Shown one piece after another: positions 1 through 1,471 of a stretch of 64,000 nt of DNA. The translations under genes were made by a program, and so were the position numbers. The stretch lies in assembly GCF_016026235.1 (NCBI RefSeq), contig NZ_CP065613.1; one strand, written 5' to 3'. The notes beneath the pieces are model-generated. The model saw only the letters and a program-made list of their open reading frames with translations, did not search any database and was not told the origin of the DNA. This stretch comes from Escherichia coli. Its GTDB lineage: Bacteria; Pseudomonadota; Gammaproteobacteria; Enterobacterales; Enterobacteriaceae. How positions within the stretch are numbered: the stretch's first letter is position 1; every line of letters begins with the position of its first letter.

Positions 1-183
1 TGCGCCAGCAATGCCTCAGCGATGGCGCTTTCACTCCCCGTTCCTACCGCCATTGGCCGACGTCCATGCCAACTGAAGACCGTAGTGCCCTAATACTTCG
101 CGCCACGCTTTACGGTGCGTAGGCTCCGTATCCAGGATTGTGCCATCCATATCAAAAATTAAACCTGCATAACGCTCGTACAT
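1..183 (-). pseudogene. yqaB: yqaB-like HAD phosphatase, 5' part, apparently disrupted: ATG at 183-181, HAD motif I (DMDGT), in-frame stop at 31-33, second frame open to window edge
   Basis: Minus-strand translation from 183 gives MYERYAGLIFDMDGTILDTEPTHRKAWREVLGHYGLQ then LAWTSANGGRNGE-stop; a different frame reads SWHGRRPMAVGTGSESAIAEALLA to the edge. Confidence 0.5.
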
Positions 184-465
184 GGTCTTCTCGCAAGTCG
201 AAAAATATGACGCTACTTTAGCGTAATTGCTTGATTTTGTCGCTGATGGAGAAGGAGAAGAAAATTCAGGAAATGGATAAAGTAGTTATTTAGAAATGAG
301 ATATTTTTGAAGGAAATTTTTTGGAGAATATGGTGCATCTGGGAGGATTACTCGCCTTGCGGCTCGCCCTTCGGGCCGTTGCTAAAGCAACGTTATCCTC
401 CCTGGTGCCTGCAGTTAATACCCCTACCTCTTCGATATCTTCATTGCTGAAGATTTCGGAGAATA

Positions 466-542
466 TGGTGCATCCGGGAGGATTCGAACCTCCGACCGCT
501 CGGTTCGTAGCCGAGTACTCTATCCAGCTGAGCTACGGATGC
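466..542 (-). tRNA. tRNA-Arg (anticodon ACG)
   Basis: 77-nt reverse complement reads GCATCCGTAGCTCAGCTGGATAGAGTACTCGGCTACGAACCGAGCGGTCGGAGGTTCGAATCCTCCCGGATGCACCA. Confidence 0.95.
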
Positions 543-740
543 ATCGGGAAAATTTATTTTACTGCTGATATTGATATCGCTACTAAAGCCATATCAAGTA
601 AGAGATGGTGCATCCGAGAGGATTACTCGCCTTGCGGCTCGCCCTTCGGGCCGTTGCTGGCGCAACGTTATCCTCCCTGGTGCCTGCGGTTAATTCCGCT
701 ACCTCTTCGATATCTTCATTGCTGAAGATTTCGGAGAATA

Positions 741-817
741 TGGTGCATCCGGGAGGATTCGAACCTCCGACCGCTCGGTTCGTAGCCGAGTACTCTATCC
801 AGCTGAGCTACGGATGC
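741..817 (-). tRNA. tRNA-Arg (anticodon ACG)
   Basis: Identical 77-nt tRNA sequence to 466-542. Confidence 0.95.
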
Positions 818-1016
818 ATCGGGAAACTTACTTTACTGCAGATTTTTTGATACCGCTACTAAAGCCGTATCAAGTAAGAGATGGTGCATCCGGGAGGATT
901 ACTCGCCTTGCGGCTCGCCCTTCGGGCCGTTGCTAAAGCAACGTTATCCTCCCTAGTGCCTACGGTTAGTACCGCCACCTCTTCCATACCTTCATCGCTG
1001 AAAGTTACGGAGAATA

Positions 1017-1093
1017 TGGTGCATCCGGGAGGATTCGAACCTCCGACCGCTCGGTTCGTAGCCGAGTACTCTATCCAGCTGAGCTACGGATGC
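1017..1093 (-). tRNA. tRNA-Arg (anticodon ACG)
   Basis: Identical 77-nt tRNA sequence to 466-542. Confidence 0.95.
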
Positions 1094-1096
1094 AAA

Positions 1097-1189
1097 TGGC
1101 GGTGAGGCGGGGATTCGAACCCCGGATGCAGCTTTTGACCGCATACTCCCTTAGCAGGGGAGCGCCTTCAGCCTCTCGGCCACCTCACC
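1097..1189 (-). tRNA. serV: tRNA-Ser (anticodon GCU)
   Basis: 93-nt reverse complement GGTGAGGTGGCCGAGAGGCTGAAGG...CCGCCTCACCGCCA with long variable arm and GCU anticodon. Confidence 0.9.
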
Positions 1190-1471
1190 ACACGCCTCTT
1201 ACGAGTGCTTCGAAGAACTTGTTTATCGCTCATCGTCGCTGCGTGGCGCACATATTACTTTCTGAGACTTATAAGTCAAACAATTTTTCCCACACTTTTA
1301 TCGTTTGCACACTTCACGCTCAATTAGTCTGTAAAAACGTCAAAAAGAGTGTTTTATCAACAGAAAAACGGAGGTCTGACAGATAGCAGTAATGTAAAAA
1401 AATGGAGACTTAAGTTGAATGAACGGGAGTAAAGCGAAAAGACTATAGAGTGAAGGAGAAATTTTGAGGGT

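Follow-up and report, generated by a model that had tools for sequence, protein, structure and literature searches.

A family of repeats now called tRNA-linked repeats (TLRs) was reportedly first described by Egan & Landy in 1978 from the tyrT-tyrV operon, the RtT RNA (rttR) of which is said to have been described by Bosl & Kersten (1991), and TLRs, including raV, raZ and raQ, were reportedly catalogued by Rudd (1999). Within this family, to which the RtT RNA of the tyrT operon belongs, the elements linked to tRNA-Arg are the shortest. The definition of the TLR family and the names raQ, raZ and raV are used here as given by Stenum et al. (2021) and in the strain table (PMC8144298). By definition, the 3' end of a TLR duplicates that of the stable-RNA gene lying upstream of it, a rule also followed by the 5S-linked RrA, RrB and RrF (PMC8144298), which are co-transcribed and then processed (PMC8144298).

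Here we analyse the spacers of a tandem tRNA-Arg array in a 64-kb stretch of Escherichia coli DNA (the whole of which is referred to as the window). With a probability of roughly 0.85, the elements in these spacers are TLRs orthologous to raV, raZ and raQ of the serV-argV...argQ operon of strain K-12, in an array with the dynamics set out below. The spacer elements are already known, and only the gene copy number differs from the reference strain; the feature represents a catalogued repeat family with ordinary strain variation in copy number. The original prediction overlooked that the spacers belong to a named, published class (raV, raZ and raQ); its statement that the function of the spacer element is unknown agrees with the literature (PMC8144298).

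Layout of the array and identity of its spacers

The minus strand at 331-1189 carries serV followed by three identical 77-nt tRNA-Arg(ACG) genes, each trailed by an element of about 135 nt (table 1), and the array is flanked by yqaB and csrA. The sequence of the three 77-mers is also that of each of the four K-12 copies. Three tRNA-Arg(ACG) genes called by ARAGORN and a tandem repeat with a period of 276 (Tandem Repeats Finder; 330-1094, 2.8 copies, 93% matches, score 1337) bear out the predicted three modules of about 276 bp, and a repeat search gave spacings of 275 and 276, with modules 89% and 93% identical to the reference copy. In transcription order each tRNA is followed by 116 nt, the 19-nt remnant of the tRNA 3' end and, before the next tRNA, an AT-rich linker of 63-64 nt; the remnant thus does not open the spacer, contrary to what had been proposed.

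Table 1. Features of the tRNA-Arg array and its immediate surroundings (positions in the window).
Feature	Position	Strand	Evidence
tRNA-Ser(GCU), serV, first gene of the operon	1097..1189	-	ARAGORN; Rfam tRNA 56.8 bits; K-12 annotation of the orthologous locus
tRNA-Arg(ACG) copy 1, argV ortholog	1017..1093	-	ARAGORN; K-12 identity; next unit 97% identical to K-12 unit 1
TLR A, raV ortholog; remnant 882-900, exact (19/19)	882..1016	-	sequence; fold; Rfam RtT 29-33 bits
AT-rich linker of 64 nt, from remnant A to the following tRNA	818..881	-	sequence comparison
tRNA-Arg(ACG) copy 2, argZ ortholog	741..817	-	ARAGORN; K-12 identity; unit match
TLR B, raZ ortholog; remnant 606-624, one mismatch (18/19, A at 617)	606..740	-	sequence; fold; Rfam RtT; unit match
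63-nt AT-rich linker	543..605	-	sequence comparison
tRNA-Arg(ACG) copy 3, argQ ortholog	466..542	-	ARAGORN; K-12 identity; unit match
TLR C, at the raQ position; remnant 331-349, one mismatch (18/19, T at 340)	331..465	-	sequence; fold; Rfam; unit match
TATTCTCC, found after the last remnant as after every tRNA	323..330	-	sequence comparison
Promoter-like site TTGACT-16-TAATAT, candidate operon promoter, ~63 nt upstream of serV	1252..1279	-	consensus scan only
Terminator-like hairpin and T-run, candidate operon end (weak)	210..224	-	consensus scan only

The 19-mer TGGTGCATCCGGGAGGATT, searched for with up to three mismatches, occurs six times in the window, every time within the array, which is far beyond chance. 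Three occurrences are the tRNA 3' ends (at 466, 741 and 1017) and three are extra copies, one exact and two with a single mismatch, just as had been predicted for the spacers, the variant copies starting at 331 and 606 and not at 321 and 605. Since TATTCTCC is repeated beyond the last remnant, the direct repeat around the terminal TLR grows to 27 bp. An inverted repeat cgttgc-taaa-gcaacg, noted before in the spacers, is present in modules A and C, and module B has cgttgc-tggc-gcaacg instead. The promoter-like site is weak, as the scan yields no more sites than shuffled sequence does; the terminator-like hairpin lies about 107 nt past the last TLR, directly before yqaB, for which the assembly shows a 182-bp deletion.

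Each spacer element begins directly after the CCA of a tRNA-Arg gene, downstream of it and in the same (minus) orientation, and its last 18-19 bp are those of the 3' end of that gene (19/19, 18/19 and 18/19 identical positions). Window modules 1, 2 and 3 are 97%, 94% and 90% identical to K-12 units 1, 3 and 4, respectively. A further criterion, a shared core, is our own and not taken from the papers: in an alignment of Arg and Lys elements 48 of 85 columns are invariant, and the core AACGTTGC-N4-GCAACGGCCCGNAGGGCGAG is common to the K-12 Arg, Lys, Pro and Tyr TLRs; in the Ser TLRs and the terminal Lys TLRs it has diverged. The Rfam RtT model (RF00391) matches all three spacers on the transcribed strand with 28.0-33.3 bits, the gathering threshold being 45 bits, and a search of the window at that threshold gave no match. 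Scores of the K-12 TLRs themselves decrease from Tyr (133-138 bits) through Pro (101), Lys (47-60) and Ser (36-46) to Arg (29-31). The full architecture of the model is absent from the window elements, its 5' half (positions ~24-60) being largely deleted or poorly aligned and only ~51-130 aligning well.

Two other readings of the spacers were dropped. They are not tRNA pseudogenes recognizable as such: the four real tRNAs are all that ARAGORN calls, and the spacers have no match to the Rfam tRNA model even at E<=1. Open reading frames over the array comprise antisense ones crossing the tRNAs and a 42-aa minus-strand frame at 859-987; the latter was discarded as a conserved gene, its ATG being present in module A and absent from B and C.

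Copy-number variation and array dynamics

The K-12 annotation has four Arg genes at this locus, as had been stated, and the window array equals the K-12 array minus a 139-bp unit consisting of the TLR-less argY and a linker. In K-12, argY is directly trailed by a sequence of the linker class that elsewhere comes after the remnant. With a query built from the unique flanks only, we counted tRNA-Arg genes in a spread sample of 59 complete E. coli genomes, and found two genes in one genome, three in four (~7%), four in 52 and five in one, one further record with an IS1 insertion being left uncounted. The sample contains at least seven classes of array length. The tRNA/TLR combinations met in other E. 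coli are 2/2, 3/3, 4/3, 4/4 (e.g. STEC1587) and 5/5, and strain MEI3O-23 has five tRNAs and no TLR, each TLR being precisely absent along with one copy of the 19-bp repeat. The original prediction had called for such a comparison, and the variation among the sampled complete genomes (2-5 tRNA-Arg genes, 0-5 TLRs) is of the kind that the unequal crossing-over it invoked would produce. Arrays in other genera are mosaics of TLR-bearing and TLR-less units.

A three-copy array might be suspected to be a four-copy array collapsed by assembly, considering that four copies are the commonest state (52 of the 59 genomes) and that short-read assemblies can collapse 275-bp tandem repeats. We deem this extremely unlikely. 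The modules are clearly distinct (89% and 93% identity to the reference module), every one of them matches a different K-12 unit, and what is absent corresponds precisely to the 139-bp argY unit instead of a full module. Moreover, the independent complete genome AHM21C2872I shows the same three-module layout at 98.6-99% identity, and three-copy arrays are carried by ~7% of the sampled genomes.

The differences between strains are directly visible, and the mechanism behind them is inferred. Units may be gained or lost through homologous recombination, with the 77-bp tRNA copies or the 275-bp modules as partners, and a TLR may be lost precisely between the 19-bp direct repeats formed by the tRNA 3' end and the remnant. 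Our best guess is that the TLR repeats also drive the gain and loss of units.

Fold, conservation and possible roles of the elements

Folding the transcribed strand, as the original prediction had advised, yields a stable predicted structure with a three-hairpin core for each TLR (z-scores from -4.2 to -5.7 overall; A, -56.6 kcal/mol, z -4.3; B, MFE -57.5, z -5.7; C, MFE -53.1, z -4.95). TLR A is predicted to consist of a 5' hairpin, a small hairpin and the three-hairpin core (~882-962), and ends in the remnant, which forms part of the closing stem of the core; in TLR B the mismatch in the remnant turns a G-C pair of this stem into G-U. An alignment of 34 Arg TLRs drawn from many genera has 96.7% of its cells paired, compared with 30-52% when the partners are slid, and six pairs show compensatory changes, a number reached by 0 of 500 shuffles; these controls are imperfect because the structure tested was derived from one of the aligned sequences. 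The same core is predicted independently by RNAalifold. The compensatory changes, found across genera, are located in hairpin 3 and the closing stem. The remnant mirrors the lineage-specific tRNA-Arg substitutions C67U and C63U, for which the 5' arm compensates. With a mismatch in two of the three window remnants, exact identity is not strictly maintained. In the Arg, Pro, Tyr and Gln elements the closing stem fits the tRNA of the host gene, and contiguous pairing in the Lys elements usually amounts to only 5 bp.

Across many genera the 5' half of the spacer diverges freely and the core is nearly invariant. The same core occurs behind tRNAs for Lys, Pro, Tyr, Ser, Gln and Arg(CCG) in several gammaproteobacterial groups, and altogether behind at least seven tRNA species in Enterobacterales, a Photobacterium, a Marinobacterium and other gammaproteobacterial genomes; the RtT family has also been reported in Pasteurellaceae. 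We do not claim these family-wide observations as new relative to the catalogue attributed to Rudd (1999).

A tentative proposal, to which we give somewhat less than even odds, is that TLRs give structured spacer RNAs that are transcribed together with the tRNAs and acquire their 3' end by tRNA-like maturation, all steps at the RNA level being inferred. The TLR would be transcribed within the polycistronic pre-tRNA and would fold into the stable three-hairpin core closed by a T-stem-like helix, in which the 5' arm GGGAGGAU would pair with the AUCCUCCC portion of the remnant, the remaining GGAUGCACCA forming a tRNA-like 3' tail. Since the tail has the sequence in which the tRNA itself ends, the TLR is probably matured at this end by the pathway that serves the tRNA, in which a cut by RNase E in the AU-rich trailer would be followed by exonuclease trimming to CCA; the outcome would be cleanly released tRNAs and a short-lived TLR RNA. 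Recognition of the repeated 3' end by RNase E has been proposed for 5S-linked TLRs (Stenum et al., PMC8144298). In a strain with argV alone and all three TLR cores deleted, tRNA-Arg2 was down 16.1-fold, compared with the 4-fold expected by gene dosage (PMC13170351), which we take as a weak hint of a role in cis. On the other hand, the K-12 terminal TLRs of lysQ, lysV, proK and serX are positioned past intrinsic terminators, and such placement implies poor transcription of many TLRs, which is hard to square with a processing role.

The TLRs are dispensable, as a strain without any of the 22 TLRs has been built and natural E. coli with no TLR at this locus exist. They might then be neutral or selfish DNA repeats devoid of RNA function, by-products of duplication and recombination in tRNA arrays, with their conservation owed to concerted evolution and to hitch-hiking with the highly conserved tRNA genes. 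Besides the TLR-less strain, this would suit the freedom with which TLR presence varies (0-5 at one locus within a single species), the location of several TLRs behind terminators and the existence of decayed copies (e.g. L111 and Ser-linked ones of Photobacterium), and concerted evolution within arrays could mimic part of the conservation. We nevertheless consider it rather unlikely. A near-invariant core adjoining a freely diverging 5' spacer in many genera, compensatory changes in hairpin 3 and the closing stem, and the retention of one core behind so many tRNA species, with the family reaching Pasteurellaceae, are hard to explain without selection or active spread.

We see as improbable a further variant, in which TLR RNAs are mimics of the acceptor/T-arm end of their own tRNA and serve as a decoy or sensor. 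Identity of the tail with the cognate tRNA would be preserved, and the 5' arm would evolve in step, so that a factor reading tRNA 3' ends also engages the TLR; candidates include an enzyme of processing or repair, a toxin or phage nuclease that targets tRNA and, acting on DNA, an integrase. The predicted closing helix of the Arg TLRs reaches ~13 bp and is followed by ACCA, an arrangement that resembles, as modelled, a minihelix substrate of RNase P or of the CCA enzyme.

Beyond the window, the wider family has been a small puzzle since 1978: a conserved, structured element shadows many gammaproteobacterial tRNA genes, duplicates the 3'-terminal 19 nt of the tRNA, with which it co-evolves, yet can be deleted without obvious harm. 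Both the natural range of 0 to 5 TLRs at one locus in E. coli and the way in which changes in the tRNA are followed by the remnant and by the arm it pairs with could be useful for the design of experiments.

Comparison with related elements

Duplicated att sites left by integrases share with the Arg TLRs a direct repeat of the tRNA 3' end from the T-loop on and a precise presence or absence. The TLRs could accordingly be scars left where an integrase once inserted an element into a tRNA gene; the core would then be what remains of the end of that element, and the 19-bp repeat (27 bp around the terminal TLR) its att duplication. Precise TLR absence in strains such as MEI3O-23 would agree with this, as would the resemblance of long-form TLRs to the host T-arm with an insert after the T-loop TTCGA. 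However, the neighbourhood of the Arg TLRs (yqaB, csrA) is free of integrase and cargo genes, the phage and plasmid records assessed gave no clear counterpart, the 5' arm of the TLRs is tailored to and structurally co-evolves with each host tRNA, which is not expected of a passive scar, and the elements are also found as tandem copies inside operons. An origin as scars is thus very unlikely. Phage, plasmid and IMG/VR collections, queried with the TLR or its core, gave for the most part chromosomal records filed there by mistake or chance matches, an appraisal that covers all but a 7-kb Salmonella phage record and two small Klebsiella plasmids, whose matches to the core are partial. One viral contig (L129) carries three Lys-type TLRs close to its edge, and ARAGORN found no tRNA in it.

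The 3'ETS-leuZ type of RNA likewise arises as a fragment when a tRNA precursor is processed (cited in PMC8144298), and RrA, RrB and RrF of the same family as the TLRs bind Hfq and CsrA (PMC8144298). A trans-acting small RNA or sponge of this kind, released from the pre-tRNA, would be in keeping with the conserved and stable predicted structure, with the origin from a highly transcribed operon and with the detectable expression of RtT-family RNAs in Actinobacillus. We find this distinctly doubtful for the Arg TLRs, which are not known to have a target or phenotype. RrA, RrB and RrF differ in lying between two rRNA-operon terminators and in having GGA in loops, and the tRNA-linked members are predicted not to bind CsrA (PMC8144298), with InvenireSRNA scores below 0.01 (PMC8144298). 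The predicted loops of the window TLRs are UUUA or GCCA, GAA and GCAA, and their GGA motifs fall in stems; the idea of a CsrA sponge, raised by the neighbouring csrA, was dropped on this loop content and the published prediction. The original claim that rtT acts in the stringent response has been retracted (PMC8144298). The 3'ETS-leuZ type differs in that it base-pairs with sRNAs on Hfq, and it has no sequence relationship to the Arg TLRs, for which nothing comparable is known or predicted.

The RtT RNA of tyrT-tyrV and the Arg TLRs have a homologous core, AACGUUGC..GCAACGRCCCGAAGGG..GAGUAAUCC, in common. Like the Arg TLRs, the RtT RNA occurs in tandem copies, finishes with the 3'-terminal 19 nt of its own tRNA and possesses a 5' arm pairing with that remnant. 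In contrast, the Arg TLRs do not have the 5' module of about 40 nt (GAGAAG..GGUUCGAC..CGAGAG), and the Arg locus is devoid of a tpr-like gene.

The closest counterparts are raV, raZ and raQ of K-12, which the window elements match in locus, in place after argV, argZ and argQ, in the 19-nt remnant and in the core, the units being 90-97% identical. K-12 differs in adding a fourth gene, argY without a TLR, to three tRNA-Arg genes each with its TLR, which is the whole of the array in the window. The terminal TLR of the window has a third hairpin of the raZ/raV type (GCC-GCAA-GGC), whereas raQ of K-12 has ACG-UCA-GUG at this place.

The array in the window and the identity of its spacers

Within its opening 2.5 kb, the window carries yqaB, the tRNA-Arg array, serV, csrA and alaS in this order, all on the minus strand. 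The three tRNA-Arg genes are identical 77-mers, with the same sequence as all four K-12 genes. According to Tandem Repeats Finder, positions 330-1094 repeat with a period of 276 bp (2.8 copies at 93% matches, score 1337); in a separate repeat search the copies are spaced 275 and 276 apart and are 89% and 93% identical to the reference copy. The 19-mer of the tRNA 3' end, searched with up to three mismatches, has six matches across the whole 64 kb, three at the tRNA ends themselves and three as extra copies (remnants); all six lie within the array, so the remnants are real rather than chance matches. The ARAGORN genes and the 19-mer search thus confirm the predicted three modules with one remnant each, with two corrections of geometry: the variant remnants start at 331 and 606, not at 321 and 605, and the remnant does not open the inter-tRNA spacer. 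In transcription order, a module consists of the tRNA, 116 nt, the 19-nt remnant ending in CACCA, and a 63-64-nt AT-rich linker leading to the next tRNA. Rfam matches to 'Plastid-ycf2 5UTR' (33 bits, below threshold), antisense to each tRNA-Arg gene, are likely spurious.

Coordinates of features in the window and in comparison stretches
Feature	Stretch	Position	Strand	Basis
tRNA-Ser(GCU)	window	1097-1189	minus	ARAGORN
tRNA-Arg(ACG) copy 1	window	1017-1093	minus	ARAGORN
tRNA-Arg(ACG) copy 2	window	741-817	minus	ARAGORN
tRNA-Arg(ACG) copy 3	window	466-542	minus	ARAGORN
Remnant A, exact	window	882-900		19-mer search
Remnant B, one mismatch	window	606-624		19-mer search
Remnant C, one mismatch	window	331-349		19-mer search
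'Plastid-ycf2 5UTR' matches	window	468-542, 743-817, 1019-1093	plus	Rfam
yqaB (junction near 72-74)	window	1-183	minus	
42-aa ORF through TLR A	window	859-987	minus	
lysQ terminator and terminal TLR	K-12, L003	1654-1809		
lysV terminator and terminal TLR	K-12, L007	830-985		
proK terminator and terminal TLR	K-12, L006	586-753		
serX terminator and terminal TLRs	K-12, L004	737-1279		
Short Lys TLRs (and similar)	K-12, L003	562-730		RtT alignment
Three tandem Lys-type TLRs	viral contig, L129	12250-12574		

The window spacers are raV, raZ and raQ, that is, tRNA-linked repeats (TLRs) of the RtT family, and the feature is thus already known. [quoted passage not shown] The Rfam RtT model (RF00391) matches the transcribed strand of each of the three spacers with 28-33 bits (E 1.5e-4 to 1.3e-2), which is below its threshold of 45, the good alignment covering model positions 51-130. 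Direct comparison of the Arg spacers with the K-12 tyrT locus reveals a common core, AACGUUGC-N4-GCAACGGCCCGAAGGGCGAG...GAGUAAUCC, after which come the final nucleotides of the tRNA at that locus. Re-deriving the family in K-12 gave six TLRs linked to Lys, four to Tyr, three each to Arg and Ser (the latter at serX) and one to Pro; most share the core, a diverged version of which is found in the Ser and terminal Lys ones. RtT scores descend from Tyr (133-138 bits) through Pro (101), Lys (47-60) and Ser (36-46) to Arg (29-31), marking the Arg TLRs as the shortest and most divergent family members; this would account for the lack of an RtT annotation of the Arg elements in the RefSeq records examined. 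Both this identity and the array dynamics described below are well supported.

Two further features lie in this region. Compared with K-12 and every E. coli genome inspected, yqaB has a 182-bp internal deletion, after which the frame shifts (at ~37 codons) and soon meets a stop; a 111-nt query over the junction required two pieces spanning 293 bp even in the best of 5,425 genomes; either yqaB is a pseudogene specific to this strain or the deletion is an artefact of the sequence. The 42-aa ORF through TLR A, which is rich in arginine in its middle part and loosely like tpr within the tyrT repeats, is probably no gene, as its ATG, present in module A and K-12 raV, is absent from modules B and C.

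Variation of the array among E. coli strains

The predicted four K-12 genes are borne out by the order argV-raV-linker-argY-linker-argZ-raZ-linker-argQ-raQ, in which the periods are 275, 139 and 275 bp. Window modules 1, 2 and 3 match K-12 units 1, 3 and 4 (97%, 94% and 90% identity), so the window lacks exactly the 139-bp unit (argY and a 62-nt linker), the sole K-12 unit without a TLR. A collapse of further copies during assembly is unlikely, given that the modules differ from one another and that each has its own counterpart among the K-12 units.

Sixty genomes, taken at even steps down the ranking, were surveyed with the unique flanks only as the query; one, matching the right flank alone, was dropped. 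Two tRNA-Arg genes were found in one genome, three in four, four in 52 and five in one, with one further genome, carrying an IS1 insertion at the locus, listed apart; array length falls into at least seven classes. In E. coli FDAARGOS_943 (H31, NZ_CP065615.1), IS1 is annotated inside the matched yqaB-alaS span. Layouts read from genomes comprise three tRNA-Arg genes with three TLRs in AHM21C2872I (the window's layout), two with two in ETEC1749, four with three in K-12, four with four in STEC1587, five with five in 2014C-4135, five with no TLR at the locus in MEI3O-23 (L134, NZ_CM149569.1), and four with one TLR and one partly deleted in O157:H7 FRIK2533 (L136). The three-copy state is ordinary strain variation. 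In MEI3O-23 each tRNA is directly followed by what elsewhere follows the remnant; the absence of every TLR is thus exact and includes one copy of the 19-bp repeat, making this array a ready-made control for functional tests. The 102-nt third spacer of FRIK2533 retains the TLR 5' hairpin but has lost the core and remnant; whereas losses elsewhere are precise, this deletion is not. In other Enterobacterales genera, too, units that have a TLR are mixed with units that lack one. The strain layouts and the precise TLR absence support the unequal recombination originally proposed, and they support a second process beside it, the precise loss or gain of TLRs between 19-bp direct repeats.

A conserved fold closed by the tRNA remnant

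On the transcribed strand, the 135-nt TLRs fold with -53 to -57.5 kcal/mol (z -4.3 to -5.7), and the 81-nt core by itself gives z -4.2 to -5.2. In the predicted structure, a 5' hairpin and a second, small one precede a three-hairpin core (CGUUGC-N4-GCAACG, GCCC-GAA-GGGC, GCC-GCAA-GGC), closed by a helix in which the 5' arm GCACC.GGGAGGAU pairs with the remnant AUCCUCCC.GG.UGC, leaving ACCA single-stranded. The remnant variant of module B would turn a closing-stem G-C into G-U, and that of module C would cost one pair near a bulge. Across an alignment of 34 distinct Arg TLR sequences, which the core-pattern scan (one genome per species) drew from many genera, 96.7% of cells are paired, compared with 30-52% after sliding the partners by 1-3 columns. 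Compensatory changes affect six pairs, in 24 cells, which none of 500 shuffles equalled, and RNAalifold independently predicts the same core. The 5' part of the spacer is free to diverge, while the core is nearly invariant. Where tRNA-Arg has G7A/C67U, or additionally G53A/C63U, the remnant carries C67U and C63U, and the 5' arm is altered in these lineages so that the pairing stays.

The core scan gave 166 hits, spread over 120 genome and three viral stretches (123 in all); ~25 hits, located inside genes of unrelated high-GC genomes, are chance matches. Defining a linked case by an upstream ARAGORN tRNA whose last 18 nt recur, with at most two mismatches, at the element end, we found Arg(ACG) upstream in 41 cases, Lys(UUU) in 36, Pro(CGG) in 15, Pro(UGG) in eight, Tyr in six, and Gln(UUG) and Arg(CCG) in one each. 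Ser(UGA)-linked TLRs of Photobacterium and relatives (stretches L024, L060, L092-L095, L119 and L127) have a larger first hairpin and, in several copies, a decayed remnant, showing that the family reaches Vibrionaceae and that copies can degenerate; RtT-family RNAs have been reported and detected in Pasteurellaceae (PMC4986893). The closing stem fits the host tRNA group by group (for example Gln ACGGCAGGAU/AUCCUGCCGU, Tyr GGGGAAGGAU/AUCCUUCCCC) and is overall longer than with shuffled remnants; in Lys TLRs contiguous pairing is usually only 5 bp. Long-form TLRs (Tyr, Pro, Ser, terminal Lys) resemble the host T-arm with a ~65-nt insert after the T-loop TTCGA. At the short K-12 Lys TLRs, the RtT alignment extends back into the preceding tRNA gene, the 5' module of the model (..AGGUUCGA..) aligning to the real T-arm, which fits the idea of a T-arm copy inside the long forms.

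Possible roles of the TLR RNA

Lying between tRNA genes, the Arg TLRs must be transcribed with the tRNAs and removed afterwards. That the fold is conserved and co-varies, and that the copy of the tRNA 3' end has been kept, suggests that the TLR RNA may be a processing mimic, the favoured reading, to which we assign a probability of about 40%. A strain devoid of the 22 TLRs has been constructed (PMC8144298), and both this strain and the natural strains with no TLR at the locus count against any important TLR role. So do the terminal TLRs of K-12 lysQ, lysV, proK and serX: preceded by an intrinsic terminator (in the case of serX, one that is part of a repeated 181-bp unit), they poorly fit a role needing high transcription. 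That TLRs are simply neutral or selfish repeats is conceivable, though we consider it somewhat unlikely. A trans-acting function of the RNA appears improbable, and an origin of TLRs as integrase scars highly improbable, phage, plasmid and viral searches for TLRs having been essentially negative. The viral contig L129 (IMGVR_UViG_2836850911_000005) contains a tandem of three Lys-type TLRs, all with a terminator-like hairpin behind them; the tandem lies close to the edge of the stretch analysed, in which ARAGORN finds no tRNA, and is probably the host flank of a prophage.

In a K-12 derivative with argV only, all three TLR cores being gone, tRNA-Arg2 was 16.1-fold lower (PMC13170351); this exceeds the 4-fold gene-dosage expectation and weakly hints at a cis role of the TLRs. 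Under the processing-mimic reading, the TLR 3' end would be made by the tRNA's own route, with RNase E cutting in the AU-rich trailer and exonucleases then trimming to CCA; the outcome would be cleanly released tRNAs and a short-lived structured RNA. The same 3'-end route has been proposed by Stenum et al. for the 5S-linked TLRs (PMC8144298).
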